The notes beneath the pieces were generated by a model that saw only the letters and a list, made by a program, of their open reading frames with translations, was not told the origin of the DNA and did no database searches. Below, piece after piece: positions 2,197 through 29,472 of a DNA stretch of 32,000 bases. The translations under genes were made by a program, and so were the position numbers. Numbering within the stretch: the stretch's first letter is position 1; the number at the start of each line of letters is the position of its first letter. The stretch comes from Flavobacteriaceae bacterium (GTDB taxonomy: Bacteria > Bacteroidota > Bacteroidia > Flavobacteriales > Flavobacteriaceae), in contig OZ245049.1 of the NCBI GenBank assembly GCA_965224465.1, positions 5,190,001 to 5,222,000 of the forward strand, written 5' to 3'.

Positions 2197-2219
2197 GTTT
2201 AATCCCACCAGTGGGTTTA
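2197..2219. repeat. 23-nt imperfect-palindrome motif gtttaatcccaccagtgggttta, copy 1 (abuts the 5' end of repeat copy A)
   Basis: Exact 23-nt identity with 4096-4118. The arms ttaatcccac / gtgggtttaa are near reverse complements. Confidence 0.85.
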
Positions 2220-2377
2220 TACCAAATACATTTCCAAGTGACGGTTTAGAAATGGAATTATTTTTTGTTTTAGTTAGGTAAAAAATGGAGGGATAGCTTT
2301 AGATATCGTTCTGTTTTTTAACAACACTAGAACGTAAAACAAACTGTTTTTATCGGTAATTTTGGATTGTAATAGGT
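2219..2377 (+). repeat. ~160-nt TIR-bounded structured intergenic repeat, full copy A (MITE-like / candidate ncRNA)
   Basis: Aligns end to end with copies D, E and F. It starts ataccaaatacatttccaagtgacgg and ends ...cggtaattttggattgtaataggt. It shares the exact block ttccaagtgacggtttagaaatggaattat with D and gttctgttttttaacaac with E. Confidence 0.9.
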
Positions 2378-2380
2378 CCC

Positions 2381-2409
2381 ACCTACAAGTGTAGGTACAG
2401 CTTTTTTTT
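2381..2409 (+). terminator. possible weak terminator just after repeat copy A
   Basis: acctac (2381-2386) pairs with gtaggt (2391-2396), loop aagt. A T8 run (2402-2409) begins 5 nt after the stem, which is short. Confidence 0.4.
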
Positions 2410-2413
2410 AAAG

Positions 2414-2429
2414 TGTTAGCTAGCTAACA
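2414..2429. promoter_or_regulatory. perfect 16-bp palindrome TGTTAGCTAGCTAACA, candidate Crp/Fnr-type operator
   Basis: The sequence is its own exact reverse complement. The TGTTA-N6-TAACA geometry matches CRP-type 5-6-5 sites. It lies 21 nt upstream of a -7 box and next to a Crp/Fnr-family gene. Confidence 0.45.
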
Positions 2430-2450
2430 TTTTAAATTGTTTTTTAGAAA

Positions 2451-2458
2451 TATCTTTG
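2451..2458 (+). promoter_or_regulatory. Bacteroidetes-type -7 promoter box (TAtcTTTG) for the lipoprotein gene
   Basis: Exact match to TAnnTTTG, 29 nt upstream of the ATG at 2487. Confidence 0.4.
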
Positions 2459-2486
2459 AGAGCTATTAATCGGTAAACTATATATT

Positions 2487-3359
2487 ATGAAAAAACTTAT
2501 TTTTTTAGCCTTGATTGTTATAGGCTTTATTTCTTGCGATAAAGAAGATGAAGAAAATTCTACAAAAGATTTATATTTAAACATTAAAGGACTCCAAGAT
2601 TTAGGAAGTGATTACGTGTATGAAGGATGGATTATCGTCAACAACGCTGCCAAGACAACAGGACGCTTTGTTGTAGATGATAAAGGTAAATTAAATACAT
2701 CTACTTTTACTTTAGATAAAAATGATTTAGAAATTGCGACATCTTTTATTCTAACCATAGAACCTGCAACAGGTGATGATCCTGCCCCAAGTAAAGTCCA
2801 TATATTGGCAGGTGAATTTTCTGGAAATGCTGGAAATCTTACTATTTCTCATAAAAAGGCTCTAGGAAATGATTTTTCTACAGCTGCTGGGAAATATATT
2901 TTAGGAACTCCTACAGATGGATCTATGAATAATGAAAAAAGTGGTATATGGTTTGTATCTCTTGAATCTGCACCAACTTCTCCTGGATTAACTTTACCTG
3001 CCTTACCTGATGGATGGATATACGAAGGATGGGTGGTTATTAATGGAATTCCTGTAACTACGGGGACATTTTCTAAGAGTACAGGAGCTGATTCTTTTAG
3101 TGGATTTAGTGGTGTATTGAATAATGGGCCCGCATTTCCTGGTGAAGATTTTATAATGAATGCACCAACAGGACTTACATTTCCAACAAATATTCAAGGA
3201 GGAAAAGTTGTTATTTCAATAGAACCTGTCCCTGATAATAACGCGGCACCATTTTTATTAAAACCCTTGGTAGGTGATATTCCTATGGACGCTTTAGATC
3301 ACACGACCTACGCTATTTCAAAGAATTTAAATTTTCCTACAGGAACATTTACTCGTTAA
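2487..3359 (+). CDS. lipoprotein with two tandem RskA-C-like (anti-sigma-K C-terminal-like) domains
   Basis: Signal peptide plus lipobox (LIVIGFISC). The two halves share YEGW[IV][IV][IV]N...TTG[RT]F and [TS]IEP...APS/APF motifs. The domain assignment is from memory of the family pattern. Confidence 0.6.
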   Translation: MKKLIFLALIVIGFISCDKEDEENSTKDLYLNIKGLQDLGSDYVYEGWIIVNNAAKTTGRFVVDDKGKLNTSTFTLDKNDLEIATSFILTIEPATGDDPAPSKVHILAGEFSGNAGNLTISHKKALGNDFSTAAGKYILGTPTDGSMNNEKSGIWFVSLESAPTSPGLTLPALPDGWIYEGWVVINGIPVTTGTFSKSTGADSFSGFSGVLNNGPAFPGEDFIMNAPTGLTFPTNIQGGKVVISIEPVPDNNAAPFLLKPLVGDIPMDALDHTTYAISKNLNFPTGTFTR

Positions 3360-3381
3360 TAAGAAGGAAATAGTTTGTAAC

Positions 3382-3419
3382 AAAAGCATCGTTATTATTG
3401 GCGATGCTTTTGTATTTTT
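3382..3419 (+). terminator. intrinsic terminator after the lipoprotein gene
   Basis: 10-bp perfect stem: aaaagcatcg (3382-3391) with cgatgctttt (3402-3411), followed by a T-rich tail. Confidence 0.8.
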
Positions 3420-3436
3420 ACACTCAAATAAAAGCA

Positions 3437-3982
3437 ATGAAATTTACTAAAAAACATTTTTTTAACCTTCTTTGGATACTTGTATTTGCCATTGTTTTAA
3501 TTCCTAGTTCTAGGGCTTGGCTGTTAAAACAACTCAGTTTTTCACCTTCCATTGAAAAAAAAACAGACCGAATAGCATTGTCTACCTATAAGTGGCAATT
3601 AAAAGGAATACATACCGAGGATGTGAATTTTGAAAACTTCAAGAATAAGGTTGTATTTGTTAATTTTTGGGCGACATGGTGTCCTGGATGCGTTGCTGAA
3701 AAACCAAGCATTCAAGCATTGTATAATGATTATAAGGATCAAGTGGTATTTGTCACAGTTAGTAATGAAACGGAAGATAAAATAACGGACTATTTCAAGA
3801 AGAAGGGGTTTAATTTACCTGTTTATAATTTAATAACACGTGCGCCAAAAGAACTCGAGACCGAAAGTATTCCTAGAACATTTGTGATTGATAAAAAAGG
3901 GATGATTGTAATAAATTCAGGAAGGGCAAATTGGAATGCGGATTCGATTCGGAAGTTTTTAGACGATTTGATTGCAGAATAA
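3437..3982 (+). CDS. TlpA-like thiol:disulfide oxidoreductase (thioredoxin fold, membrane anchored)
   Basis: WATWCPGC active-site motif and an N-terminal TM anchor (FFNLLWILVFAIVLIP). I moved the start to the ATG at 3437, because the track start at 3398 is a TTG lying inside the upstream terminator. Confidence 0.85.
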   Translation: MKFTKKHFFNLLWILVFAIVLIPSSRAWLLKQLSFSPSIEKKTDRIALSTYKWQLKGIHTEDVNFENFKNKVVFVNFWATWCPGCVAEKPSIQALYNDYKDQVVFVTVSNETEDKITDYFKKKGFNLPVYNLITRAPKELETESIPRTFVIDKKGMIVINSGRANWNADSIRKFLDDLIAE

Positions 3983-4095
3983 TCGACGCTATTCAAAATA
4001 AATAGCGAATAACTTTACAATGTATTGCTCAGCGTACAGCGTTTCTTTTTTACTAATTTTTTATAACGTAGGTGCATTCACGTGTTTAGATACGT

Positions 4096-4118
4096 GTTTA
4101 ATCCCACCAGTGGGTTTA
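4096..4118. repeat. 23-nt imperfect-palindrome motif gtttaatcccaccagtgggttta, copy 2
   Basis: Exact 23-nt identity with 2197-2219. It lies in the convergent spacer between the tlpA-like and aminotransferase genes. Confidence 0.85.
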
Positions 4119-4227
4119 ATTCCCCGATGCTTGCATCGAAATGATGAAGGTTTTTTCTTTTTCATGCCTCGTGGGCTCGCCTCGAGCTTATTGACTTTTA
4201 ACAAATCAATGCTGAACGATCTAAATA

Positions 4228-5412
4228 TTACTTCAATTTTAAACTGTGAATTACCGAAAGAATTATTCCACATCCCTTTTCTATTTCTTGCATGCTTATG
4301 TTTAAAGGAGGGGTAATGCGAACAGCAGCGCCTTCAAAAAGAAGCCAAAAGAGGAACAAGCCTTCTTTCATAGATTTTAAGATGACTTGAGTGGCAATTT
4401 CGGGACTTTTAAATATAGGAGCGAGCATTAATCCTTGTCCTCGTATTTCTAAGATGGAAGGATGTTGCAATAGTTTTCTAATTAATTGCTCTTTTTTATC
4501 AATCTGTTCCATCAATTGCTCGTTGTACAAACTCTCCAATGTAGCCAATGCAGCTGCAGCAATTACCGGATGACCTCCAAAAGTAGTGATATGCCCTAAT
4601 TTGGGTGCAGTTTTTAGTAAACTCATCAATTTGTTGGAGGCAATAAATGCGCCAATCGGCATGCCACCTCCCAATCCTTTACCTGCAATTACAATATCTG
4701 GAACAATGTTGTAATGTTCAAATCCAAACAGCTTTCCTGTACGTCCAATGCCTGTTTGAATTTCATCTAAAATAAGTAAAGCACCAACCTGCTTACACCG
4801 AGCGCTTACTTTTTTTAAATAGTCATGCTTAGGAATAATAAATCCAGCACCTCCTTGAATGGTTTCTAGAATAACTGCTGCGGTATTGGTGGTTATTTTT
4901 TTTAATTCGTTTTCTGCATTGAAGCTAATAAATTTTATTCCTGGAATTAAGGGTCTAAATGCACGGTTTTGTTCTTCGGATCCACAGACACTCATAGCTC
5001 CTTGAGTATTTCCGTGATAAGAGTTGTGTGCGGCTATAATTTCATATCTTCCAGTAGCGCGTTTGGCTAATTTTAAGGCGCCTTCTGTTGCTTCTGTCCC
5101 CGAATTAGTCAGGTATGTGGTGTCTAGTGGAGCAGGGGAGTGCTCAGCTATAAATCGCGCTAATTTTACGGCAGGTTCCTGTACGAATTCTCCATACACC
5201 ATAACGTGCGTATATTTTGAAACTTGTGTAGTAATCGCAGCGCTTATTGCAGCATGGTTATGTCCCAACGTGTTTGCAGACACGCCTGCTATAAAGTCTA
5301 AATATGGTTTTTTGTCTGTATCATACACATAAGATCCCTTTGCATGGCTTATTTCCAAAGCCAATGGATGTTCGGATGTTTGTGCTTGGTATTTTAGGAA
5401 ATCTGCTTTCAA
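4228..5412 (-). CDS. class-III PLP-dependent aminotransferase (acetylornithine/ornithine aminotransferase-like)
   Basis: Motifs LTNSGTEATEGALKLA, LILDEIQTGIGRTGK and the PLP-lysine region IAGKGLGGG. The start is an apparent TTG one nt after the upstream gene's stop. Confidence 0.88.
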   Translation of the reverse strand: MKADFLKYQAQTSEHPLALEISHAKGSYVYDTDKKPYLDFIAGVSANTLGHNHAAISAAITTQVSKYTHVMVYGEFVQEPAVKLARFIAEHSPAPLDTTYLTNSGTEATEGALKLAKRATGRYEIIAAHNSYHGNTQGAMSVCGSEEQNRAFRPLIPGIKFISFNAENELKKITTNTAAVILETIQGGAGFIIPKHDYLKKVSARCKQVGALLILDEIQTGIGRTGKLFGFEHYNIVPDIVIAGKGLGGGMPIGAFIASNKLMSLLKTAPKLGHITTFGGHPVIAAAALATLESLYNEQLMEQIDKKEQLIRKLLQHPSILEIRGQGLMLAPIFKSPEIATQVILKSMKEGLFLFWLLFEGAAVRITPPLNISMQEIEKGCGIILSVIHSLKLK

Positions 5413-5413
5413 T

Positions 5414-7066
5414 TTAATTTCTTTTTTTGAATCCCTTTTCTTTGATTCTGTTTGCTTTTTTCTGTGGGACTATATTTTTTTTTGTTGATACGTTGGAGGT
5501 TTTCTTAGGCAAAGCGATACGTACTTTTTTCTTTTTAAGTGTTGATGTTTTTAGGATTTTCTCTGGGGTATCATGAATAAATATATCTTCAATTTTTAGA
5601 GGTTGTTCATCTCCTCTCCATAAAAAACCTTTGATGGTTTTTTTTTCTTTTGGAAAATCTTCTACAGGATACGTATCTCCTTTTGCACTTCTAAAATGAG
5701 TAATATAGAGCACTTTTTTGTTTTTCATTTCTATTTCTATTCTACTGCTTCTCAATGTAGAAATTGCGAGTAGCTCATGTGCTTCATTTCTGTTATATGT
5801 GACTACTTGGCAATTTCCTATTACATGTAAATTTCGTAAATCATTATCTATAAACTTACCTAGCATGCGTTTTCCTGCCATTTGATTATAGCCAACAGAA
5901 TCCTTCTGTATCATAAAGGCATTTCTCAATATTTTTAATGAATCCAGTTTTTCTGTTTTTGGATTGGATAATAATTGAATGGTGTCACCACTAATTTGAT
6001 TTCCTTGAGCCCATATTACGGGAGATTTAAATAATTGTGTAAGCCCAGATTTCTGATCTACATGCATGGAGTCACATTTTCCACTCATATCATTTTTAAA
6101 AAATTTAACATGTGTAAAGGCACGTAATACACGGTGCGCTGGTTTTCCTGTAATCATTAGTTTTTTTCCATGAACATACATAGAATCTTTACCTACAAGA
6201 GAAATAGCAACGGCGCGTTTGGTAATAAAAAGAGAATCTTTAAAACGATATAATTCGGCATAACCACCTTTGACAACCGATTTGTTGATGCTGTCTGTTA
6301 TTTTTATATTTCCAGTAAGTGAGGAGAATTCTTTTGGTTGATTGTAGTAGATGCTATCGCCTTGAATAATTCTATTTTTAAAGTAGATTTTAGAGTTTTT
6401 TAAAAGATGTGAAATATTGGTTTTTGAGTTAAAGTCTCCTCTTTCTGTATATATCTTTGTGCTGTCTTTCTTATGGATGATTGTAGAGGGACCTTTAATA
6501 TTTACCATTCCAGTTTCGGTAAAATACTCCAACCTGTCAGATACAAGATCATTCTCTTCGTTATACACGTTTACATGGGAATTGGCTACAAATCTGTTTT
6601 CTTTCAAATAGTATGTTCCTTTATTGCTTTTAAGGGTGTTGGTTGTGTCTATAATGATGCCTTTGGTGGGGTAGTACAATTTTTGTGCAGTTCTGTCAAA
6701 ATATAAAGTATCTGTTTTTAAAGTGATGAATTGATTTTTTAAAATCACGTTTCCATAAGATTTTACCAGTTTTGTATTTCCGAAATATTCAATAAACTGA
6801 CTGGTTTGTGTTATGGTATCACCTTGATTAAAGACAACATCACCCATCGCTTTAAGCTTGTTTTCTGCTGCGTATCGTATGACCATCTTACAACGCATTG
6901 TCGCCCCTTCGTGTTCTAGAAATACATTGCCAAAAGAAATAATAGCTCCGGGGTATTTTTCTTCATTGCTAAACGTATCGTCTGCACTTAAAATTTTTAT
7001 TTTTGGTGTTTGCGATTGTACTTGTGTTAACATAAGTACACAGAATAATAGGAGTAATTGCTTCAA
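5414..7066 (-). CDS. secreted OstA/LptA-like beta-jellyroll repeat protein with a lysine-rich C-terminal tail
   Basis: Signal peptide (KQLLLLFCVLMLTQVQSQ) and repeated GNV/GDV...L..D.L.Y strand motifs as in OstA_N/LptA domains. A TTG start is inferred because it preserves the signal peptide. Confidence 0.6.
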   Translation of the reverse strand: MKQLLLLFCVLMLTQVQSQTPKIKILSADDTFSNEEKYPGAIISFGNVFLEHEGATMRCKMVIRYAAENKLKAMGDVVFNQGDTITQTSQFIEYFGNTKLVKSYGNVILKNQFITLKTDTLYFDRTAQKLYYPTKGIIIDTTNTLKSNKGTYYLKENRFVANSHVNVYNEENDLVSDRLEYFTETGMVNIKGPSTIIHKKDSTKIYTERGDFNSKTNISHLLKNSKIYFKNRIIQGDSIYYNQPKEFSSLTGNIKITDSINKSVVKGGYAELYRFKDSLFITKRAVAISLVGKDSMYVHGKKLMITGKPAHRVLRAFTHVKFFKNDMSGKCDSMHVDQKSGLTQLFKSPVIWAQGNQISGDTIQLLSNPKTEKLDSLKILRNAFMIQKDSVGYNQMAGKRMLGKFIDNDLRNLHVIGNCQVVTYNRNEAHELLAISTLRSSRIEIEMKNKKVLYITHFRSAKGDTYPVEDFPKEKKTIKGFLWRGDEQPLKIEDIFIHDTPEKILKTSTLKKKKVRIALPKKTSNVSTKKNIVPQKKANRIKEKGFKKRN

Positions 7067-7132
7067 GTTTTTTAATTTGTGGTAAAAATAACCAATTTGT
7101 AAAGAACCAGTATTAAAGTTCTGTTAGAATAT

Positions 7133-7168
7133 AAAAAAACCTGTAGATTTTTCAATCTACAGGTTTTT
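7133..7168 (-). terminator. intrinsic terminator after purA (palindromic, usable in both directions)
   Basis: cctgtagat (7140-7148) pairs with atctacagg (7155-7163). An A7 run lies on one side and a T5 run on the other. Confidence 0.8.
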
Positions 7169-7187
7169 ATTATGTATTTCAATCAGT

Positions 7188-8459
7188 TTATCTGTTGATG
7201 GTTTGTTTTCTGTCTGGACCTACAGATACAATAGTAATAGGTACATTTACAAAATCCTCGATGTATTTGATATAATCGTTCAATTCTTTTGGTAAGGTAC
7301 TCTTAGAGTCCATTTCTGTCAAATCTTCTTTCCAACATGGAACAGTTTCGTAAATAGGTGTTACGTTGTGTTCTTCAATATTGTATGGGAAATGTGAAAT
7401 TTCTTCTCCTTTATAATTGTATTTAGTACATACTTCTAAGGTGTCAAAACCAGACAATACATCTGCTTTCATCATCATTAATTGAGTTACACCATTTATT
7501 TGAACAGCGTATTTAAGTGCTACTAAATCCAACCATCCACATCTACGTGGTCGTCCAGTTGTTGCACCAAACTCATGCCCAACTTTAGCCATTTCTTCTC
7601 CGTTTTTGTCAAATAATTCGGTAGGGAATGGTCCTGATCCAACGCGTGTTACGTAAGCTTTGAATATTCCAAATACTTCGCCAATTTGATTTGGAGCAAC
7701 ACCCAATCCTGTACAAGCACCTGCGGCGGTTGTGGTGGAAGATGTTACAAAGGGATACGTTCCAAAGTCAATATCCAATAAAGATCCTTGAGCACCTTCG
7801 GCTAAAATTGTTTTCCCTGCTTTTAATGCTTGATGGAAATACTCTTCACTATCTATAAAACGCAATGTTCTTAATGTTTCAATAGCATTAAAAAATTCAG
7901 TTTCCAATTCGTTTAAATCAAATTCTAACTGAGAATCATAATGGCTTAACATTTTTAAATGTTTATTGGCTAGAGCTCTGTAAATTTCTTTCCAGTTGCT
8001 CATTTCCAAATCACCAATACGCATTCCGTTTCTACCAGTTTTGTCCATATAAGTGGGACTAATACCTTTTAATGTAGAACCAATCTTAGCTTTTCCTTTT
8101 GCTGCTTCACTAGCGGCATCTAATAATCGGTGGGTAGGTAGGATTAAATGTGCTTTGCGAGATATCAATAATCTAGTAGGGAAATCTATATTATATGCAG
8201 ATAAATTATCCAATTCTTTTTTGAAGATTACAGGGTCTATCACGACACCATTTCCTACAATATTGATAGAGTTTTTGCGAAAAATTCCTGAAGGAATCGT
8301 ATGCAATACATGTTTTTGACCATCAAAAATTAAGGTGTGTCCCGCGTTTGGTCCTCCTTGAAAACGAGCAATAATGTCGTAATCAGTGGTTAAAACATCT
8401 ACGATTTTTCCTTTTCCTTCATCGCCCCATTGTAGCCCTAGTAATAAATTTACAGCCAT
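7188..8459 (-). CDS. purA: adenylosuccinate synthase
   Basis: 423 aa. N-terminal GLQWGDEGKGKIVD P-loop, GGPNAGHT, and the TTGRPRRCGWLD motif. Confidence 0.96.
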   Translation of the reverse strand: MAVNLLLGLQWGDEGKGKIVDVLTTDYDIIARFQGGPNAGHTLIFDGQKHVLHTIPSGIFRKNSINIVGNGVVIDPVIFKKELDNLSAYNIDFPTRLLISRKAHLILPTHRLLDAASEAAKGKAKIGSTLKGISPTYMDKTGRNGMRIGDLEMSNWKEIYRALANKHLKMLSHYDSQLEFDLNELETEFFNAIETLRTLRFIDSEEYFHQALKAGKTILAEGAQGSLLDIDFGTYPFVTSSTTTAAGACTGLGVAPNQIGEVFGIFKAYVTRVGSGPFPTELFDKNGEEMAKVGHEFGATTGRPRRCGWLDLVALKYAVQINGVTQLMMMKADVLSGFDTLEVCTKYNYKGEEISHFPYNIEEHNVTPIYETVPCWKEDLTEMDSKSTLPKELNDYIKYIEDFVNVPITIVSVGPDRKQTINR

Positions 8460-8484
8460 TTTAATGTATTAATTATGTTGTTGT

Positions 8485-8925
8485 TTAATTATTCTTTTTT
8501 TTTGTTCCGTAGAAATAGAGAGAGTGATTGTGGATTTCGATGCCAAATTCTTCTTCAATCGTTTTTTTGATTGTTTGAATTCGTGGATCGCAGAATTCCA
8601 TAACTTCTCCTGTATCTGTGATGATGACATGATCGTGTTGTCTGTCAAAATAACTTTTCTCGTAATGTGCTTGAGATTGACCAAATTGATGTTTTCGTAC
8701 CAAACCAGCGTCTAATAAGAGTTCTATCGTATTGTACAAAGTAGCTCTACTTACACGATAGTTTTTGTTTTTCATTTGAATATATAGTGATTCAATGTCA
8801 AAATGATCTAACAACGCATATACCTCCTGCAATATAGCAAAACGTTCAGGCGTTTTTCTATGATTGTTTTTTTCTAAAAAGTTGATGAACACCTTTTTAA
8901 CAATTTTTTGATTGTCGCTACTCAT
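8485..8925 (-). CDS. Fur-family transcriptional regulator
   Basis: 146 aa. Winged-helix region ([21 protein letters not shown]) and an HDH metal-site motif (QHDHVI). It is probably co-transcribed with purA, with a 25-nt gap. Confidence 0.85.
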
Positions 8926-9008
8926 ACTGTATATTTTTTACGAAATTAAATCATTTTTATTTAGATTTACTAGAAAATGATATAAATTATTATCGAATTT
9001 CGTCTCCA

Positions 9009-11237: not shown

Positions 11238-11574
11238 TAAATGTAATATTTATTACATGGAAAGCAAACTTTTCTAGTTCTTATTTTAATTTATTAATCC
11301 GCTCTCATAAAGTGGGGTGGGAATACATTATAAATACATACCATGGATGTGGAGTTAAGTTACTGAGGCTCTTTTTAGAAAGTATTTTAAGTGCAAGCAT
11401 TAATACGATGTTGGAATACGTGTTTTTAGCAAAGTTACCTGCTTGATATTCAGATTTTTTAAAGGTTAAATTCCTGATAATTTTAGTAAATATCGAAATT
11501 GGTGCGTATAAAAACACAAAAACGACCAATCTTATATGAAAACTTGCTGCTTTTAGTCCTAAAACATGTGAATA

Positions 11575-11624
11575 ATACCAAATACATTTTCAAGTGACGT
11601 TTAGAAATGGAATTATTTTTTATT
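11575..11624 (+). repeat. repeat family, 5' ~50-nt part (B1), separated from its 3' part by B2
   Basis: ataccaaatacattttcaagtgacgtttagaaatggaattatttttt matches the first third of copies A, D, E and F. Confidence 0.85.
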
Positions 11625-11699
11625 ATACCAAATTAAATTTCCAAGAGACGGTTTAAAAACAAACTATTTATATAGGTCATTTTGGATTTTAATTGATAT
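11625..11699 (+). mobile_element. 75-nt termini-only mini copy (B2) of the repeat family, apparently inserted into another copy
   Basis: It has both ends of the family (ataccaaattaaatttccaagagacggttta ... aaaacaaactatttatataggtcattttggattttaattgatat) but lacks the ~85-nt internal hairpin region. It is flanked by the two halves of a full copy. Confidence 0.7.
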
Positions 11700-11810
11700 T
11701 ATAGCTAGGCGAAAATCCTAAGGATAGCCTTAGCGATTGTTCTATTTTTCAGCAACGCTAGCACGTAAAACAACCTATTTATATCGCTTATTTTGGATTG
11801 TAATTGGTGT
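11700..11810 (+). repeat. repeat family, 3' ~110-nt part (B3)
   Basis: tatagctaggcgaaaatcctaaggatagccttagcg...cgcttattttggattgtaattggtgt aligns with the 3' two thirds of the full copies. Confidence 0.88.
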
Positions 11811-11842
11811 TAATAATAAGGCAATAACAGAACCTACTGCCA

Positions 11843-12304: not shown

Positions 12305-12305
12305 A

Positions 12306-13103: not shown

Positions 13104-13141
13104 AGGACAAAAATAAGTTAAAAATACCTTTATTTCGTAGC

Positions 13142-14940: not shown

Positions 14941-15050
14941 TTTATAGCTAGGCGGAAAATCTAAGGATACCCTTAGCTATCGTTCTGTTTTTCAATAACG
15001 ATAGAACGTAAAATAAACTATTTATATCGGTCATTTTGGATTGTAATTGA
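14941..15050 (+). repeat. repeat family, 5'-truncated copy C (3' ~110 nt only)
   Basis: tttatagctaggcggaaaatctaaggatacccttagctatcgttctg...aaactatttatatcggtcattttggattgtaattga. It starts at the same internal point as B3. Confidence 0.88.
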
Positions 15051-15351
15051 ATTGTTCGATGCGCTATCTAGAGATAGAAAATAGTTTTTCGGAAGCATAT
15101 CTCGTATCCTTGGTGCGAGGCGGTTGTTTTTTGTTTTGTAATTCTTTTTTGATTCCTGACTTTTACAAGGGATAAACGGTTGGTCTAAGTTCAAATTATA
15201 CTCCTTTCCAGTAATCTATAACGCTATTTTTAAGTCGTAAATCAACATTTAAAGCATTCAGTTTTTTTGTATTTACTAAAGATAGGTTCATTTTTAGAAT
15301 CACTAACATTAACGAGTGGAGGGCTGTTTTAAGCTTTTTAAAATCGTATTT

Positions 15352-15512
15352 ATATCAAAAAAAATTCCAAGTGACGGTTTAGAAATGGAATTATCTTTTG
15401 TTTTATCTAAGCGATAAAGGGAAGGATAGCCTTAGCTATCGTTTTGTTTTTTAACAATGCCAGAACGTAAAATAAACTATGTATATCGGTTATTTTGGAT
15501 TGTAATTGGTAT
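15352..15512 (+). repeat. repeat family, full copy D
   Basis: atatcaaaaaaaattccaagtgacggtttagaaatggaattatc...tatatcggttattttggattgtaattggtat. In the family the outermost ATACCAA/TTGGTAT are exact inverted repeats (exact in E); D has one mismatch in the 5' arm (atatcaa). Confidence 0.9.
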
Positions 15513-15857
15513 TGTTGTGTCGGAAGAACATACTTGTAGCTTTAGAAAATTGCAAAGACTTATTGTAAACAGCTGCTAAAATGATATTTTTTTAGACCTG
15601 CCTGAGAGTGATCTGTTTTTTAGCAATGTATTTGTTTGCATCTACCATTTAAAGGAAAGCGTTCTTTTTTTTTGAAATCGTTTGTTTAGAATTTTAATAC
15701 ATCAAAAATGACGCGATTATTTTACAAATAATTAAAGATCTTAAGTGAATTAGAAGTGCTAAAATTAAGTGCCTACAACATTGGTGGTAGGACGATTTGT
15801 TTTTATAGTAAAAGGATTAAAAAAACAGTATTTTTTATGTAAACACGTATAAAACAG

Positions 15858-18199: not shown

Positions 18200-18263
18200 G
18201 AAAGATAATTTTATTTATTCATGATATTCTTCATGAAATAGGAAAGGAGACTAAAAATAGTTT

Positions 18264-18271: not shown

Positions 18272-18295
18272 TACGGTACAATAAAGTGAATATTT

Positions 18296-19345: not shown

Positions 19346-19351
19346 CTTGCG

Positions 19352-20542: not shown

Positions 20543-20548
20543 AATAAA

Positions 20549-21535: not shown

Positions 21536-21613
21536 AGCAGGTTGTTAAACAAAGTTGAAAATTAGTCATTTTAATGGGGAACTATTTAGTATTTTTACGA
21601 AAATTTAGAATCC

Positions 21614-22363: not shown

Positions 22364-22380
22364 GTATTATATTAGAAGTA

Positions 22381-22529
22381 ATACCAAATAAATTTCCAAG
22401 TGACAGTGTAGAAATGGAATTGTTTTTTGTTTTAGCTAGGCGGAAAACCATAGCTGTCGTTCTGTTTTTTAACAACGCTAGAGCGTAAAACAAACTATTT
22501 ATATTGGTCCTTTTAGACTGTATTGGTAT
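22381..22529 (+). repeat. repeat family, full copy E (short internal deletion, 3' arm more diverged)
   Basis: ataccaaataaatttccaagtgacagtgtagaaatggaattg...gttctgttttttaacaacgctagagcgtaaaacaaactatttata...ctgtattggtat. It starts 18 nt after the pssA stop codon. Confidence 0.88.
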
Positions 22530-22586
22530 AAGAACGCTGCATTAAAAATCGAGGGGTTTTTATAAAAAAGTATTGAGATTTTATAT

Positions 22587-22630
22587 AAAAACACCGCCTT
22601 TTCAATTGAAAAAGGCGGTGTTTTATTTTT
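22587..22630. terminator. strong bidirectional intrinsic terminator (serves lptB on the minus strand and pssA plus element E on the plus strand)
   Basis: aaaacaccgcctttt-caattg-aaaaggcggtgtttt is a near-perfect long palindrome, with A and T runs on both sides. Confidence 0.85.
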
Positions 22631-22717
22631 GTAAAGTCGTATCTTTATATTGATTTTTTTACAAGATAAAAGTTATAATAGCGTGGCTTGGTAGTAGGAT
22701 GTTGATTATAACTGTGA

Positions 22718-23452
22718 CTAAAATTTCTTTCGTTTCAACTCAAAATCCATTCCTAGATACACGCGACGTACGTTTTCGTCTGCGGCTAATTCTTCAGGAG
22801 TTCCTTCTTTAAGAATGCTTCCTTCGAACATTAAATAAGTCTTGTCCGTAATGGCAAGTGTTTCTTGAACATTATGATCGGTAATTAAAATGCCTATATT
22901 TTTTGTTTTTAATTTGGCTACAATACTTTGTATATCTTCTACAGCAATGGGATCAACCCCAGCAAAAGGTTCATCTAGTAAAATAAATTTAGGGTCAGAA
23001 GCCAAGCAACGGGCAATTTCTGTTCTTCTGCGTTCACCTCCAGAGAGTAAGTCTCCACGGTTTTTGCGGACACGTCCTAAGCTAAATTCCTCAATTAATT
23101 CTTCTAGTTTTTCTTTTTGTTCCGCTTTTGTTCTATCAGTAAATTCTAGTACTGATAAAATATTGTCCTCAACAGATAATTTCCTGAAAATTGAAGCTTC
23201 TTGAGCCAAGTATCCTATGCCGTTTTTTGCACGGGTATACATTGGGTCGTTTGTGATTTCTTTATCATCTAAATAAATATGCCCTTCATTGGGTTGTACC
23301 ATGCCCACAATCATATAAAAAGAGGTGGTCTTTCCTGCTCCGTTCGGCCCTAATAATCCAACAATTTCTCCTTGTTTTACTTCAACAGATACACCTTTTA
23401 CTACATAGCGTTTTCCGTATTTTTTCTTTATATTTTCTGCACGTAATATCAT
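22718..23452 (-). CDS. lptB: LPS export ABC transporter ATP-binding protein
   Basis: 244 aa. Walker [10 protein letters not shown], signature [13 protein letters not shown], Walker [13 protein letters not shown]. Size and C-terminal extension are typical of LptB. Confidence 0.9.
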
Positions 23453-23761
23453 ATTCTGTTTTCTTATAGATTACATCTTATAGGATGCTTAATTGTTGAA
23501 ACGATAAAAACATCATTTCAGTCTGCCTTTTTTTATGTTTTTCTAGCAACCCTTTGTATTTATAGAACTGAGGTAAATATGCGGTTGCGATTGCTAGTTT
23601 TTTAGATACTTGTTCTTTTTATAATCCAGATTTATTGCCGTTTTACCCAATGGTATTTGATAGGTGTAATACCATTGGCTATCAAAGCTACTGTTTTTTA
23701 GATTTTAAATACTTTTTTATAAGCATCGGTATCTAAGTTAAATAAACGCTAGCTATTAAAA

Positions 23762-24583
23762 TTACTTTTTAAGTCCTACATTTTTTTTGTTTAATCGTTT
23801 TTCTACAATACTCGATATTTTGATGCTAATTTCATACAAAATAAGAATTGGAATGGCTACAATTATTTGGCTAATTATGTCTGGAGGGGTAATTATAGCT
23901 GCTATAATAAGGACGATTACAAGTGCATGCTTTCTGTATTTTTTCAGGAAAGCAGGAGTTACTAAGCCCATTTTTGATAAGAAATAAATGACAATAGGCA
24001 ATTCAAATATCAATCCAGAAGCCAGTACAGATGAACGTAAAAGGGCTATATATGACCCGATTTTGATGTTCCGCGCTACTTGATCACTTACAGAATAAGA
24101 TCCTAAGAAGTTTACAGACAATGGGGTTACTACATAATAACCAAACGCGACTCCTAAAAAGAATAACAAAGAGGAAATTACGATAAAAACTTTTGCGTTT
24201 TTTCTTTCACTTGAATATAGACCAGGACTTATAAATACCCAAAATTCGTGGATAATATAAGGAAAAGCCACTATAAATCCAAAAGTTAGCGAAGTCCATA
24301 TATGAACAGAAAATTGTTCTGCCATGGCTAAACTCTGGAAGGTAAATGGTATTTCTGTTATACATAGTCCTTCTGCATGTAATAATTTACTTACACTACA
24401 GAAAAACCGATATGTAACAAATTGAGGGTCTTTTGGAGCAAATATGATGGTGTTAAAGATAAAATCTTTCATTACAAATGCAACAATTGCAATTACTAAA
24501 ATTGCCAAAATACATCTTATTAGATGCCACCTAAGTTCTTCTAGGTGGTCTAAAAACGACATTTCATTTACTTTTTTGTTCAT
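23762..24583 (-). CDS. tatC: twin-arginine translocase subunit TatC
   Basis: MSFLDHLEELRWHLIR N-terminal signature and six predicted TM helices, 273 aa. The start codon directly abuts the kpsF stop. Confidence 0.92.
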   Translation of the reverse strand: MNKKVNEMSFLDHLEELRWHLIRCILAILVIAIVAFVMKDFIFNTIIFAPKDPQFVTYRFFCSVSKLLHAEGLCITEIPFTFQSLAMAEQFSVHIWTSLTFGFIVAFPYIIHEFWVFISPGLYSSERKNAKVFIVISSLLFFLGVAFGYYVVTPLSVNFLGSYSVSDQVARNIKIGSYIALLRSSVLASGLIFELPIVIYFLSKMGLVTPAFLKKYRKHALVIVLIIAAIITPPDIISQIIVAIPILILYEISIKISSIVEKRLNKKNVGLKK

Positions 24584-25549
24584 TTAGAAAATTCCTTCTT
24601 TGATTAAATCGTGTAAATGTACTACTCCTTTATAAGAACCGTTATCAGCTACTAAGAGCGAAGTTATATGATTACTTTCCATAAGTTCTAAGGCTTGTAC
24701 AGCCATTGCGTCTGATGCAATGGTTTTAGGGTTGTGGCTCATGATGTCTTGAGCAGATAATTTCGTGAAATTATCGGTATTGGTCAGCATCCTTCGAATG
24801 TCTCCGTCTGTTATAACACCTACAATCAAGTCGTTTTCTAAAACGGCTGTGGTTCCAAGGCGTTTTTCTGAAATTTCAATAATCACTTCCTTTACATTAG
24901 TCGTGGTTTGTACAAGTGGTTTTTCGTTGTTTTCCAACAGGTCTTTAACACGTAGGTAGAGTTTTTTTCCCAAGGCGCCACCAGGATGGTATTTTGCAAA
25001 GTCCTTACTGGTAAAATCATTGAGGTTTAAAAGGCAGACTGCGAGTGCATCACCTAAAACTAATTGTGCTGTTGTGCTAGAAGTCGGAGCCAAATTATTA
25101 GGACACGCTTCCTTTTCTACATACGCATTCAGAACAAAATCTGCATTTGTGCCTAAAAATGATTCTTTATTACCCGTAAGTGCAATAATTTTATTTCCAT
25201 AATTTTTTATCAAAGGAATGAGTACTTTTATCTCTGGAGTGTTTCCGCTTTTTGAGATACAAATAACAACATCATTTTGTTGTATGGTTCCTAAGTCTCC
25301 ATGTATAGCATCGGCTGCGTGCATGAAAATGGCAGGAGTTCCAGTTGAATTTAGGGTAGCGACAATCTTTGTAGCGATATTGGCGCTTTTCCCGATACCG
25401 GTTACAATTACCCTTCCATTTGAATTGTGGATAAAATTAACAGAGTTTTCAAAATCTACATCAATTAAATTGACTAAATTCGCAATCGCTTTACTTTCAA
25501 TTAAAATTGTCTGTTGAGCGTTCTTAATTATATTATTTTTGCTTTTCAA
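24584..25549 (-). CDS. kpsF: KpsF/GutQ-family arabinose-5-phosphate isomerase (SIS + tandem CBS domains)
   Basis: SIS motif VTGIGKSANIATKIVATLNSTGTPA followed by two CBS repeats. The start appears to be TTG. Confidence 0.88.
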   Translation of the reverse strand: MKSKNNIIKNAQQTILIESKAIANLVNLIDVDFENSVNFIHNSNGRVIVTGIGKSANIATKIVATLNSTGTPAIFMHAADAIHGDLGTIQQNDVVICISKSGNTPEIKVLIPLIKNYGNKIIALTGNKESFLGTNADFVLNAYVEKEACPNNLAPTSSTTAQLVLGDALAVCLLNLNDFTSKDFAKYHPGGALGKKLYLRVKDLLENNEKPLVQTTTNVKEVIIEISEKRLGTTAVLENDLIVGVITDGDIRRMLTNTDNFTKLSAQDIMSHNPKTIASDAMAVQALELMESNHITSLLVADNGSYKGVVHLHDLIKEGIF

Positions 25550-25594
25550 AAGTTAAAAATTTTCTGGTTTAAAAAAATGTATTATCTTTAGTTG

Positions 25595-25602
25595 CAAATG
25601 TA
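25595..25602 (-). promoter_or_regulatory. Bacteroidetes-type -7 box (TAcaTTTG on the minus strand) upstream of kpsF-tatC
   Basis: CAAAtgTA on the + strand, 46 nt upstream of the kpsF start, in the divergent spacer shared with recQ. Confidence 0.35.
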
Positions 25603-25625
25603 TCTAAAATTAGATTAATAATAGA

Positions 25626-27824
25626 ATGAATAGTAAGGAAATTGATTTACACAAATCACTAAAACAGTATTTTGGTTTTGACCAATTCAAGGGGCTGCAA
25701 GAAGTTGTTATTCGTAGTATTCTGAACGAAGAGAACACTTTTGTGATTATGCCTACAGGTGGTGGGAAATCGCTATGTTACCAATTACCCGCATTGATTA
25801 ATGAAGGGACGGCAATTGTAGTGTCCCCATTAATTGCCTTGATGAAGAATCAAGTAGATGCCATTCGTGGTATTTCTTCTGAATACGGTATTGCTCATGT
25901 GTTAAATTCTTCTTTAAATAAAGGAGAAATTGCCCAAGTTAAAAGTGATATTGAAAGTGGGGTTACCAAATTGTTGTACGTTGCTCCAGAATCTCTCACA
26001 AAAGAGGAATATGTGGAGTTTCTAAAAGCGCAAAAAATTTCATTTGTAGCGATTGATGAAGCGCATTGTATTTCGGAATGGGGACACGATTTTAGACCCG
26101 AGTATAGGAATTTAAGAAATATTATCAAACAGATAAGTGATGTGCCTATTATAGGACTCACCGCTACTGCTACCGAAAAGGTACAAGAAGATATTTTGAA
26201 AACCTTAGGAATGTCTGATGCCAATACTTTTAAAGCATCCTTTAATAGACCTAACTTATTTTACGATGTACGCTCTAAAACAAAAAATATAAATGCTGAT
26301 ATTATCCGTTTTATAAAAAAACGAGAAGGGAAATCAGGGATTATCTATTGTTTGAGCCGTAAAAAAGTAGAAGAGATTGCTCAAGTACTACAGGTAAATG
26401 GAATAAAAGCGGTGCCTTACCATGCTGGATTGGATGGGAAAACACGTGCTCGACATCAAGATATGTTTTTGATGGAGGATATAGATGTAGTAGTTGCGAC
26501 TATTGCCTTTGGAATGGGAATAGACAAACCAGATGTTCGCTTTGTGATTCACCATGATATTCCTAAAAGTTTGGAAAGTTATTACCAAGAAACAGGACGT
26601 GCGGGTAGAGATGATGGTGAAGGCTATTGCTTGGCTTATTATGCATATAAAGATATTGAAAAACTTGAAAAATTCTTAGCAGGAAAACCTGTTGCAGAAC
26701 AAGAGATAGGACATGCATTACTACAAGATGTAGTGGGCTATTGTGAAACCTCTGTGTCTAGACGTAAGTATTTGTTGCATTATTTTGGGGAGGAATTTGA
26801 TGAGGTTAATGGCCTAGGTGCGGAAATGGACGATAACACCAAAAATCCAAAAGTAAAAACCGAAGCTAAAGATGAACTGAAATTATTGCTGGAAATAATT
26901 TTATTGACAAAAGAAAAATACAAAGCTAAAGACGTTGTGAGTACCATCGTTGGAGCAGCAAATGCAATGTTAAAATCTCATAAAACAGATTTACAACCAT
27001 TTTTTGCCAAGGGGAAAGATAAGAGTGATAAGTACTGGACAGCATTGATTCGTCAAGCGCTTGTAAATGGGTTTCTTTCAAAAGAAATAGAACAATACGG
27101 AGTGTTGAAAATGACAGAGAAGGGGAGAAGTTTTATAGAAACTCCTTACTCTTTTATGATGACCGAAGACCATTTGTACGAAGAAGAAGATGACCATCAT
27201 ATAATAAGCGATATTAAAAGTGGAGGAGCTGCTGCAGATATTGTGTTGATGAAAATGTTGAAAGAATTACAAAAATCAGTCGCTAAAAAACAAGGAGTAC
27301 CGCCGTATGCTGTTTTTACAGAGCCGTCTTTAGAAGATATGTCACTTAAATATCCTATTACCTTATCCGAACTTACAAATATTTTTGGTGTAGGAGAAGG
27401 AAAAGCACGTAAATTCGGGAAACCTTTTGTAGAACTTATAGCAGAATATGTTGCCGATCATGAGGTAATGCGTCCAGATGATTTTGTTGTCAAGAGTACA
27501 GGTGAAAACTCTGGTTTAAAGCTGTTTATTATACAAAATACAGATCGTAAAATCCCTTTAGAGGATATTGCAAAATCCAAAGGCTTGCAATTTGACGATT
27601 TGATTGCAGAATTACAGCGTATTGTATATAGTGGTACTAAATTAAATATTAACTATCATTTAGATGATATTTTAGACGAAGACCAACAAGAAGAAATATT
27701 TGACTATTTTATGGAATCTGAAACCGATAAAATAGAAGATGCATTAGAAGAATTTGACGGGGATTACGACCTTGAAGAACTCCGTTTGATGCGAATAAAG
27801 TTTATTAGCGATGTAGCTAATTAA
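25626..27824 (+). CDS. recQ: ATP-dependent DNA helicase RecQ
   Basis: 732 aa. Motifs MPTGGGKSLCYQLPA, DEAHCISEWGHDFRPEY and TIAFGMGIDKPDVRFVIH, plus RQC and HRDC regions. Confidence 0.96.
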   Translation: MNSKEIDLHKSLKQYFGFDQFKGLQEVVIRSILNEENTFVIMPTGGGKSLCYQLPALINEGTAIVVSPLIALMKNQVDAIRGISSEYGIAHVLNSSLNKGEIAQVKSDIESGVTKLLYVAPESLTKEEYVEFLKAQKISFVAIDEAHCISEWGHDFRPEYRNLRNIIKQISDVPIIGLTATATEKVQEDILKTLGMSDANTFKASFNRPNLFYDVRSKTKNINADIIRFIKKREGKSGIIYCLSRKKVEEIAQVLQVNGIKAVPYHAGLDGKTRARHQDMFLMEDIDVVVATIAFGMGIDKPDVRFVIHHDIPKSLESYYQETGRAGRDDGEGYCLAYYAYKDIEKLEKFLAGKPVAEQEIGHALLQDVVGYCETSVSRRKYLLHYFGEEFDEVNGLGAEMDDNTKNPKVKTEAKDELKLLLEIILLTKEKYKAKDVVSTIVGAANAMLKSHKTDLQPFFAKGKDKSDKYWTALIRQALVNGFLSKEIEQYGVLKMTEKGRSFIETPYSFMMTEDHLYEEEDDHHIISDIKSGGAAADIVLMKMLKELQKSVAKKQGVPPYAVFTEPSLEDMSLKYPITLSELTNIFGVGEGKARKFGKPFVELIAEYVADHEVMRPDDFVVKSTGENSGLKLFIIQNTDRKIPLEDIAKSKGLQFDDLIAELQRIVYSGTKLNINYHLDDILDEDQQEEIFDYFMESETDKIEDALEEFDGDYDLEELRLMRIKFISDVAN

Positions 27825-27825
27825 T

Positions 27826-27861
27826 AAAAAAGCGAAGTTTAAAAGACTTCGCTTTTTTTTT
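27826..27861 (+). terminator. intrinsic terminator after recQ
   Basis: gcgaagt (27832-27838) pairs with acttcgc (27846-27852). An A-run precedes it and a T9 run follows. Confidence 0.8.
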
Positions 27862-28030
27862 GATATTATTTATCGATTTTAAATGAAAATATAAACGCCT
27901 AATGACTGTTTTGTTATTTTTTTGATAAATCGACTTTTTATTAAAAATAGTGCTTTTTACGATACGATTATTTACTTTTTCTCAAGTACATTTATAAAAG
28001 AATTTTAACCTAATTTTAAGAGTACGTATC

Positions 28031-29215
28031 ATGAATATGAAAAGTATTAAATCGTTAAAAGAAACAAGTTTTTTAAGAGAAAGACAATATGAAGCCGTTG
28101 GGTTTTTAGTCATGTTTTTTGGTGTATTTAGTTATATTGGACATAATATGGGAGTCGCTAATATGCTGAATACCATCATGAATACAGCCTGGGATTTATT
28201 GATGAATACGGTGTTCTATATTATGGGGATAACGGTGTTGTCTGGTGCGCTGGGGCGTTTATTGATAGAATTTGGTGTGGTGAGATTACTCGAGAAAATA
28301 TTAGCGCCTTTAATGCGTCCGTTATTTAATTTACCGGGTGTTGCTTCCTTGGCGGGTGTGTTGACTTTTTTATCGGATAACCCAGCTATTATAAGTTTGG
28401 CACATGATAAAAATTTTAGTAAATATTTTAAGAAATATGAACTTATTTCGTTGACGAATTTCGGTACCGCTTTTGGTATGGGTTTAATTGTTATGACCTT
28501 TATGTCTACCTTACAAATACCGGGCAACGATGAAAATATGTTTATTCCTGCACTGATTGGATTGTTTGGAGCGTTGATTGGTGCTATTGTATCTACTAGA
28601 TTGATGCAATATTTTATCAAAGGAAAAATAAAACCAAGAAAAGAGGATGATCTGGAAGGGGCGAACGAGAAAATTAGTTTCAAATCCGAAGGAGGTGCTT
28701 TTATCCGTTTTTTGAATGCGATTCTTGATGGAGGTAAATCGGGAGTAGATCTAGGTTTGGCAATTATCCCAGGCGTGTTGATTATTTCTACATTTATTAT
28801 GATGCTTACATTTGGACCAAAAGATGCTGCTATTGGTTATCAGGGGTTGGCGTATGAAGGAGTCACATTGTTGCCGCAATTAGCAGATAAAGTTTGGTGG
28901 ATATTTGAAGGTTTATTTGGTTTTGAGCATCCAGAATTAATTGCTTTTCCTATTACATCTCTTGGTGCAGTTGGTGCCGCATTGTCTTTGGTAAAAGCAT
29001 TTATTGCTCAAGGAATTGTAGATGGTAATGTGATTGCCGTTTTTACAGCAATGGGTATGTGTTGGAGTGGTTACTTGAGCACTCATACTGCAATGTTAGA
29101 TACGTTAGGATATCGTGAGTTGACTACAAAGGCATTGTTGTCTCATAGTATTGGAGGTGTTGTCGCAGGTACTTGTGCGCATTATGTGTACGTGTTGGTA
29201 ATGATGCTGATTTAA
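28031..29215 (+). CDS. multi-pass membrane protein, nucleoside-recognition (Gate) domain-like; function unknown
   Basis: 394 aa, highly hydrophobic throughout. The segment LMRPLFNLPGVASLAGVLTFLSDNPA resembles the Gate-domain motif of YjiH/SpmA-type proteins; this assignment is from memory only. Confidence 0.6.
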   Translation: MNMKSIKSLKETSFLRERQYEAVGFLVMFFGVFSYIGHNMGVANMLNTIMNTAWDLLMNTVFYIMGITVLSGALGRLLIEFGVVRLLEKILAPLMRPLFNLPGVASLAGVLTFLSDNPAIISLAHDKNFSKYFKKYELISLTNFGTAFGMGLIVMTFMSTLQIPGNDENMFIPALIGLFGALIGAIVSTRLMQYFIKGKIKPRKEDDLEGANEKISFKSEGGAFIRFLNAILDGGKSGVDLGLAIIPGVLIISTFIMMLTFGPKDAAIGYQGLAYEGVTLLPQLADKVWWIFEGLFGFEHPELIAFPITSLGAVGAALSLVKAFIAQGIVDGNVIAVFTAMGMCWSGYLSTHTAMLDTLGYRELTTKALLSHSIGGVVAGTCAHYVYVLVMMLI

Positions 29216-29311
29216 TCGAAGGCTAAAAAGTGTGGTATTGTTCTGTTTTTTAATCCTAAATAATTTAGGACAGCATTTGTTGTAGCCAATAGATGAAAAG
29301 TGTTCATGTTT

Positions 29312-29472
29312 ATACCAAATACATTTCTAAGTGACGGTTTATAAATGGAATTATTTTTTGTTTTAGCTAGGCGAAAAATGGATGGATAGTCTTAGCTAGT
29401 ATTCTGTTTTTTAACAACGCTAGAACGTAAATTAAACTATTTATATCGGTTATTTTGAGTTTTAATTGGTGT
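29312..29472 (+). repeat. repeat family, full copy F
   Basis: ataccaaatacatttctaagtgacggtttataaatggaattattttttgttttagctaggcgaaaaatggatgg...aaactatttatatcggttattttgagttttaattggtgt. Confidence 0.9.

Follow-up and report, generated by a model that had tools for sequence, protein, structure and literature searches.

Why does an ordinary stretch of flavobacterial chromosome carry the same non-coding sequence of about 160 nucleotides (nt) again and again, always on the same strand? The question is raised by a 32 kb stretch of DNA (contig OZ245049.1, positions 5,190,001 to 5,222,000, of a Flavobacteriaceae bacterium), referred to here as the window. A preliminary description, made from its letters alone, had proposed that the repeats are either a non-autonomous mobile element resembling a miniature inverted-repeat transposable element (MITE), or a family of structured RNA or single-stranded DNA (ssDNA) elements. 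The analysis described here favours a new MITE family that inserts at TWA trinucleotides (TTA or TAA), is moved in trans by a transposase, has multiplied within this lineage and appears to have had a part in the loss of its M48 peptidase gene; we put the probability of this reading at about 75%. Most likely the family is new but belongs to a well-known kind of element and does not represent a new kind of system, its newness being set against Rfam alone.

A family of full, truncated and nested copies

Copies of the element were located in three ways, by repeat finding, by an nhmmer search whose profile was made from the full copies and by self-BLASTN, and the same set was obtained each time (table 1). 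The window holds four full copies (A, D, E and F, with full-length nhmmer matches at E = 1e-43 to 1e-48), one 5′-truncated copy (C) and one composite (B), all of them on the plus strand; the element measures 149–161 nt. Two diagnostic patterns match six and four times, against 0.00 expected from dinucleotide shuffles, and self-BLASTN reveals no further large family of repeats there. With three methods in agreement and no matches expected by chance, the repeat family of the preliminary description is real; the exact blocks that it quoted as shared between copies are present, and its observation that every copy has the same orientation is borne out. It had also placed all copies between genes, which is true of each except B, which sits in the remains of a peptidase gene. 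Short open reading frames (ORFs) vary from copy to copy, extending for 9, 10, 14 or 24 codons from the same ATG, in keeping with the earlier statement that no ORF is conserved; a conserved small ORF was accordingly rejected. The absence of a transposase or integrase gene is likewise upheld by Pfam among window ORFs of at least 80 amino acids (aa), a search that does not extend to short ORFs nested in annotated genes.

Table 1. Element copies, their flanking trinucleotides and the peptidase gene remnant. A–F, copies in the window (window coordinates); L1, L2 and L4, copies on contigs L001, L002 and L004.
Feature	Coordinates	Strand	Extent and boundaries	Search result	Left flank	Right flank	Flank comparison
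A	2217..2379	+	full length; match 2219-2379; left TTA 2217-2219; core from 2220	nhmmer E=1e-48	TTA	CCA	degenerate right end
B1	11573..11625	+	5′ ~50 nt of full copy, interrupted by B2; TAA 11573-11575; core from 11576	nhmmer 11575-11627, profile positions 1-54, E=4e-9	TAA
B2	11626..11698	+	73-nt mini-copy, two termini only (about 33 + 40 nt)	nhmmer profile 2-33 and 118-160	TTA (11623-11625)	TTA (11699-11701)	perfect
B3	11702..11812	+	3′ ~110 nt of the interrupted copy; core end 11809 (TTGGTG), then TTA 11810-11812	nhmmer 11700-11810, profile positions 51-161, E=3e-26		TTA
C	14941..15051	+	3′ ~110 nt only, 5′-truncated or decayed	nhmmer 14943-15049, profile 51-157, E=1e-29
D	15350..15514	+	full length; match 15352-15512; core 15353-15511	nhmmer E=5e-48	TTA	TTG	one mismatch
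E	22379..22531	+	full length except for an 11-nt apex deletion; match 22381-22529; core 22382-22528	nhmmer E=4e-43	TAA	TAA	perfect
F	29310..29474	+	full length; match 29312-29472; core 29313-29471	nhmmer E=3e-47	TTA	TTA	perfect
L1	L001:6516-6676		full copy		CAA	TAA	one mismatch
L2	L002:5380-5540		full copy		TTA	TTA	perfect
L4	L004:902-1062		full copy		TAA	GCA	degenerate right end
M48 peptidase remnant	11278..11562	-	residues 317-411 of 413, two in-frame stops	tblastn with L011 protein, 65% identity, E=4e-33

Copies within the window are 82–85% identical to one another and 87–89% identical to L2, a copy near the consensus; in this star-like pattern each copy has drifted by about 8% from a common master sequence. 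Substitutions are spread unevenly along the element (chi-square p=0.02) and are fewest at positions 18–47, at 4% against about 12% elsewhere; these conserved positions may reflect a binding site or chance.

Sites empty in relatives and copies in other genomes

The closest named relatives are Lutibacter species (79% identity in RelA and 81% in RecQ). Syntenic contigs of relatives were reached via RelA and RecQ homologues, with 90–93% aa identity in these proteins and 80–89% nucleotide identity: L009–L012 cover window positions 1–14200, L013–L022 cover about 14400–32000, and L006 and L008 are relatives that carry aroQ. This set (L006 and L008–L022) comprises about 220 kb, is partly redundant and represents at least five RecQ-distinct and two RelA-distinct relatives. 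An nhmmer search at maximum sensitivity finds no copy of the element in these syntenic sequences, and all six sites, A to F, are therefore empty in the relatives.

The individual sites differ in what surrounds the missing copy. The spacer between the Crp and RskA genes, which holds copy A, measures 372 bp in the window and 86 bp in L011. At site E the bidirectional terminator downstream of the copy is kept in L013, from which the element itself is absent. The spacer at site F is 503 bp long in the window. The two genes abut in L013–L016 and L022, are 270 bp apart in L021 and stand about 446 bp from each other in L017–L019; no copy is present in L013–L022 whatever the spacer size. Downstream of aroQ, the site of copy C, no copy is found in L006, L008 or L013. 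A strain with 97.6% identity does carry copy C there, and a 923-bp short-read contig of this strain (L005) ends within the copy. As C is shared with this strain and the relatives are empty, the family multiplied in the window lineage after its split from the nearest available relatives and before the two strains parted; since the short-read contig breaks inside C, a high copy number is likely.

Copies elsewhere point in the same direction. Full copies are present in at least two metagenome-assembled genomes of Flavobacteriaceae among the matches listed (L1 and L2), and a further full copy lies on a metagenome contig (L4); they are 75–90% identical to the window copies. Their settings are a spacer between two rhodanese genes (L001), a position adjoining a GATase gene (L002) and a spacer between hemerythrin/PAS and COX3 genes (L004). 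The three contigs share no genes with the window except for a weak, partial match near one end (50% identity over 89 aa, end of L004), and so their sites are not orthologous to any site in it. BLAST finds no match in plasmid and phage collections, and scans of viral contigs give only a chance coding match (L007); L003, from the scan of genome contigs, was likewise rejected as a chance match.

Several smaller observations concern the site of copy C. Between L005:864-923 and window 14941-15000 the first 60 nt of C differ at seven positions (12%), while the flank differs by about 2.4%; the excess could come from short-read mixing of repeat copies or from gene conversion. In L006, an 87% relative without a full copy, TACCAAAAATAGTTCCAAGTTAG (10503-10525, minus strand, downstream of aroQ) agrees with the family's 5′ terminus over 18 of 23 positions; it could be one end of a mini-element with distant kinship, or a chance likeness. 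The region downstream of aroQ in relatives also holds a CTCTATT tandem repeat (L006:~10640-10675), a CACATCT tandem repeat (L013:1727-1770) and repeats containing AGTATTGAG (L008:~830-1000), so that the spacer 3′ of aroQ seems to be a repeat hot spot across the whole group.

A nested copy at a gene-destroying deletion

In all four relatives that cover this part of the window (L009–L012), an intact M48 peptidase gene of 413 aa lies between the genes for NlpC/P60 and RelA, the three being adjacent and co-oriented. The window has lost residues ~13–316 of this protein, exactly at composite B, and with them the HEIGH catalytic region; nucleotide homology to the relatives' gene ends 1–4 nt from the start of B1. 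The window M48 gene is a pseudogene truncated at composite B. About 12 codons from its beginning have possibly been left beside the NlpC/P60 stop codon (about 11811-11843, minus strand).

Composite B itself (11575-11810) is a full copy, B1 plus B3, split by B2 after consensus position ~51. B2, a mini-copy nested within the B1/B3 copy, has TTA on each side, and when B2 and one TTA are removed, B1 and B3 together have the length of the consensus (from reading of the sequence, checked in the flank scan described below). One mini-copy has transposed into another copy. The loss of ~300 M48 codons would have come about either through recombination that joined two co-oriented insertions or when DNA beside a single insertion was deleted. 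A nested mini-copy consisting of termini only, situated at a gene-destroying deletion, is the behaviour of a transposable element and is hard to fit to a vertically inherited RNA gene. The family is accordingly implicated in the destruction of the M48 peptidase gene.

Ends of the element and a probable target-site duplication

The core of the element runs from TACCAAAT to ATTGGTA and has imperfect inverted ends of about 26 nt. Compared by eye with the reverse complement of the 3′ end, the 5′ end agrees with it at 19 of 26 positions (about 20 in the preliminary description), the nhmmer profile also matches the reverse complement of the copies (E = 1e-4 to 8e-7), and BLAST of the element against its own inverse gives 64% identity over 160 nt. 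The terminal inverted repeat is therefore real. The outermost bases had been given as ATACCAA and TTGGTAT; the inverted ends stand, and the boundary is better placed one base inward, as TACCAA...TTGGTA flanked by TTA or TAA. This is the coherent solution of a flank scan in which boundary offsets and repeat lengths were varied over the eight copies that retain both ends: a core of TACCAA...TTGGTA with 3-bp TTA/TAA flanks (table 1). In copy A the right terminus is degenerate, with ATAGGTCC in place of ATTGGTAT.

Because TWA is its own reverse complement, only the middle base can tell a direct repeat from an extended inverted repeat. That base is equal on both sides in six of six informative copies (about p=0.016), which is the sole weighty evidence for duplication. 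The flanks of B1 and B3 are unequal (TAA and TTA), as expected if this copy arose when two insertions recombined, or if one of its flanks is gone. In two of the loci from other genomes the flank is a stop codon: the left flank of L4 is the TAA that ends the upstream ORF 3..902, and the right flank of L2 is the stop codon of the downstream ORF 5540..7438(-). Taken together, a 3-bp TWA target duplication is probable. The element would then insert at TTA and TAA trinucleotides and duplicate them, which would imply a staggered cut by a transposase of the DDE type.

Other boundaries were tried and rejected. A 2-bp TA duplication, with the core starting at CCAA, fails in that TA is conserved element sequence and cross-pairing of flanks gives all matches; a 5-bp ATTAT duplication fits B2 alone and a 7-bp TCCCACC duplication fits A alone. 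The absence of any duplication at B2 is possible and was dropped, as the host copy would then have to exceed the consensus by one base.

One long hairpin and its orientation

On the plus strand each full copy folds from end to end as a single imperfect hairpin, with energies between -34 and -48 kcal/mol; the minus strand reaches between -13 and -36 kcal/mol. The element is in effect one imperfect palindrome, in which the similarity of the arms runs inward as far as the apex GATAGC-CTTA-GCTATC, and the consensus fold contains 47–57 pairs. The two internal hairpins that the preliminary description had singled out are only local alternatives to this single long hairpin. Across seven full copies 92.6% of alignment cells are paired, as compared with about 45% when the partners are slid. 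Shuffles do as well in percentage paired and in covariation (68/500 and 46/500 of them, respectively, reach the observed values), and only three pairs have double changes. Since pairing is no better than in shuffles, the palindrome is a property of the master sequence, with no clear sign of upkeep in single copies.

Eight of the nine loci overall are co-oriented with the upstream gene, the exception being B, which is antisense to the dead M48 gene. Copies A, C and E sit between the upstream stop codon and a terminator-like site found by a terminator scan: C follows the aroQ stop codon and precedes a terminator at 15100-15120, while E has the pssA stop codon (22361-22363) upstream and the bidirectional terminator 22588-22624 downstream. 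The hairpin downstream of copy F, read by eye, has no clear T-run. In the same kind of scan, the apex hairpin followed by GTTCTGTTTTTT itself scores as terminator-like on the plus strand. The window plus strand is rich in G and T (GC skew +0.07, AT skew -0.08).

An internal sigma-70 promoter was rejected: TTAACA-16-TAAACT matches at 9 of 12 positions and is not enriched over shuffles. The promoter consensus of Bacteroidota differs from the sigma-70 type. GC skew was also dropped as a proxy for the direction of replication, being positive on the element strand at three of four loci and uninformative.

Comparison with known families

Rfam 15 gives no match at gathering score anywhere in the 32 kb window on either strand, and permissive searches with single copies return noise. 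The preliminary description had recognized no described family, which holds for Rfam, including the Flavobacteria motif Flavo-1 (RF01705). Flavo-1 yields nothing at E<=10 in copies D, F and L1; its best alignment is to L002:5408-5457 (+) only and includes several non-canonical pairs; it scores 16.8 bits (E=0.34 when 200 nt are searched), where gathering requires 42. The likeness consists of the occurrence in Flavobacteria, the same strand and this weak partial alignment over GGAA...TTTTT...AAAAA...GGA; the score lies under gathering, the element is not a member, and the alignment, on the element's own strand, is probably due to chance. An origin from a tRNA or from something like a short interspersed nuclear element was rejected, as ARAGORN finds none.

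MITEs are abundant in the phylum, with 81,380 distinct MITEs in 46,051 Bacteroidota genomes (PMC11602168). In its form and function the element recalls Tourist-like MITEs as well as ERIC and Correia elements. With the Tourist-like MITEs of the IS5 group and Harbinger it shares small size, lack of coding capacity, inverted ends, an apparent 3-bp TTA/TAA duplication, nested insertion, dispersal between genes and derivatives that have internal deletions yet retain both ends; the differences here are the TACC termini and the presence of all local copies on one strand. A 3-bp TWA or TNA duplication is typical of some DDE transposases of the IS5-group and Harbinger types. The ends of the IS5 group start with GG or GA, unlike the TACC termini, so that the transposase could belong to this family or to another.

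Other palindromic repeats offer partial likenesses. The enterobacterial ERIC elements (also termed IRU; Enterobacteriaceae and Vibrio) are imperfect palindromes of about 130–160 nt, lie in transcribed intergenic regions, vary in presence between species at given sites, have no known transposase and are proposed to form RNA hairpins. They differ in host phylum and in occurring in both orientations, no sequence kinship is expected, and the evidence for duplication and nesting belongs to the present element. Correia elements of Neisseria (NEMIS) have about 100–155 bp, inverted ends of ~26 bp and internally deleted size variants, and are known as hundreds of intergenic copies co-transcribed into hairpins; unlike the present family they duplicate TA and not TWA, contain promoter and IHF sites, and are unrelated in sequence and host phylum. 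REPINs, mobilized in the REPIN/RAYT system, resemble the element in their inverted arms within a long hairpin, intergenic position, lineage-wise expansion and non-autonomous nature. They are, in contrast, shorter doublets of repetitive extragenic palindromic (REP) sequences of ~25–35 nt, without target duplication and with a single-copy RAYT gene, whereas the flanks here look duplicated and no RAYT gene is present in the window or fetched loci.

Weighing the explanations

Short, non-coding, bounded by terminal inverted repeats and dispersed in copies whose sites are empty in relatives, the element has the features of a MITE. This branch of the preliminary description is backed by the empty sites, the copies elsewhere, the nested mini-copy, the gene-disrupting composite and the probable 3-bp duplications. 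Insertion at TWA sites would be carried out in trans by a transposase that an autonomous element encodes at some other place in the genome. Expansion in the lineage was followed by ~8% drift, internal deletion (E and B2) and truncation (C), and most surviving copies lie between the stop codon and terminator of a co-oriented gene, where they would be transcribed as a long hairpin in the 3′ untranslated region (UTR). Several results count against it. No partner transposase is found among window ORFs or beside the L1, L2 and L4 copies. Perfect 3-nt repeats flank four of eight copies, against about two of eight obtained by cross-pairing of these AT-rich flanks, which is not significant alone, and copies A and L4 do not fit a 3-bp duplication. 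The nearest relatives are too diverged for base-by-base alignment of intergenic sequence, the comparison spanning species or genera, and no empty site is defined to the base; at site A the block without counterpart in relatives (286 nt, 2115-2400) exceeds the element. Finally, all six to eight insertion events in the window are on one strand, which a DDE mechanism alone does not predict; nor does that mode of transposition predict that G·T mismatches are commoner than A·C ones (63 against 19, a strand-symmetric count of each copy against its own reverse complement). The one-strand pattern could stem from selection on orientation within transcripts, from a replication-linked bias or from chance over six to eight events.

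These strand effects are where an RNA role enters, as an addition to the MITE reading and not a replacement for it: an element of mobile origin could have been kept, or filtered by orientation, as a 3′-UTR hairpin of ~160 nt, which could protect the 3′ end of the mRNA or, through the apex and the T-run after it, aid termination. The co-orientation with upstream genes, the placing of A, C and E ahead of terminator-like sites, the better folding of the plus strand in every copy and the terminator-like apex would all suit this idea, as would the G·T excess and the transitions at Watson–Crick pairs, of which 19 keep a wobble pair and nine break it (six and seven at unpaired positions). The last two results are suggestive only, since the copies are not independent and the counts are inflated, and mutational bias on a G/T-rich plus strand could give part of the G·T excess. 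With covariation and percentage paired not above shuffles, B antisense to its transcription unit and relatives that do without the element at every site, we regard a retained RNA function as possible yet doubtful. A more specific proposal is that insertions are targeted to, or survive at, TAA and TTA just past stop codons only in the orientation that gives a G·U-tolerant hairpin, and there set mRNA 3′ ends or stability, or alternatively that transposition is strand-specific and coupled to replication; this is speculative and somewhat less probable still.

Movement as ssDNA by a hairpin-recognizing HUH (Y1) enzyme, in the manner of REPIN/RAYT or of miniatures of IS200/IS605, with a strand bias relative to replication, would explain why all window copies, even the antisense B, share a strand, why that strand is the G/T-rich one, on which a hairpin tolerates G·T pairs, and why the whole element is a hairpin. 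HUH transposition does not, however, make direct 3-bp duplications such as the flanks resemble, and the element has terminal inverted repeats in place of like-oriented subterminal hairpins, with no separate hairpin at the 3′ end when the sequence is read. The local GC skew is reversed at L002, and no gene for a Y1 transposase (TnpA or RAYT) occurs in the window or fetched loci. Compared with REPIN/RAYT and with IS200/IS605 miniatures (PATEs), only the one-strand orientation agrees, and we consider this mechanism improbable. Least credible, to the point of being very improbable, is a non-mobile, vertically inherited family of small-RNA genes or cis-regulatory RNAs. Conservation of 75–90% across genomes and a stable structure would be in its favour; it is contradicted by absence from all orthologous sites in relatives, by a gene context that differs in each genome, by truncated, nested and deleted copies, by the position of one at a gene-destroying deletion, by homology that begins abruptly at the terminus with no conserved promoter upstream, and by the lack of an Rfam match. 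The RNA and ssDNA branch of the preliminary description may apply but is not needed for the family as it stands, the G·T asymmetry and co-orientation being suggestive and the covariation not above controls.

Surroundings of the copies

The window has a G+C content of 33.9% and its genes are ordinary chromosomal ones, including those for aconitase, a Crp-like regulator, an anti-sigma factor, RelA/SpoT and NlpC/P60, followed by aroQ, FTCD, pssA, lptB, tatC, recQ and lpd. Genes were called by Pfam for ORFs of at least 80 aa, and four ORFs were named only via synteny with relatives. Synteny breaks at ~14250-14400, where the DUF3810 gene adjoins aroQ in the window and, in L009–L010, a gene for an EF-G-like GTPase. 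The possibility that the outer membrane protein (OMP) gene beside C and D (15899-16411) was moved by repeat-mediated rearrangement was rejected: it is 26% identical to the OMP beside aroQ in L013, and the two are not orthologues.

The extra block at site A consists of 104 nt with three short hairpins (terminator-like at 2128-2149), copy A and then 23 nt that form a terminator with the conserved T-run; the block probably records two or more insertions or a larger composite. Immediately left of copy A (2183-2206) and immediately right of copy F (29473-29498) lies a second small repeat, ATCCCTTATTGAG(TG)AGGGT(A)TTT, a short hairpin with a G+C stem. It could be a REP-like element in its own right, or a site at which insertions preferentially land. 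The hairpins 3′ of C (15098-15138) and F (29541-29569) are also alike, with ATCTCGTATCCTTGGTGCGAGGCGGTTG in one and ATCTCCTGCCTTGGGGAGAGGCTGTTG in the other, and may represent a third small repeat with a terminator-like hairpin. Self-BLASTN flags other long palindromes at 1295-1437, 27801-27883, 22588-22624, 7131-7173 and 30296-30335; the first two were rejected as further elements and read as ordinary bidirectional terminators. Near copy F, a protein of ~130 aa (29719-30108, minus strand) has a weak NUMOD1 match (E=9e-4) as its sole match. Its gene is single-copy in the window and in L021 and is present as three or four tandem paralogues in other relatives (L013:13590-15121; L017:13232-15225); copy F occupies the spacer in which these extra paralogues sit.

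Implications for the lineage

For specialists nothing here is unexpected, the abundance of MITEs in the phylum being known (PMC11602168). For this organism, the family accounts for most of the long spacers in the region and provides a concrete case of repeat-linked gene loss in the M48 peptidase. Short-read assemblies of the species break at its copies, as seen in the 923-bp contig that ends within C, and the family could serve as a marker for strain typing. For two of the three copies in other genomes, the stop codon of a flanking gene serves as the TAA or TTA that is probably duplicated, and an insertion of this kind spares the gene. If the proposal of orientation-dependent survival were true, the one-strand orientation and the G·T excess would be footprints of selection for dispersed 3′-UTR hairpins. 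Should the orientation bias extend genome-wide, the family would offer a tractable test of the co-option of MITE hairpins as 3′-UTR elements in Bacteroidota, a phylum in which intrinsic termination is poorly characterized.

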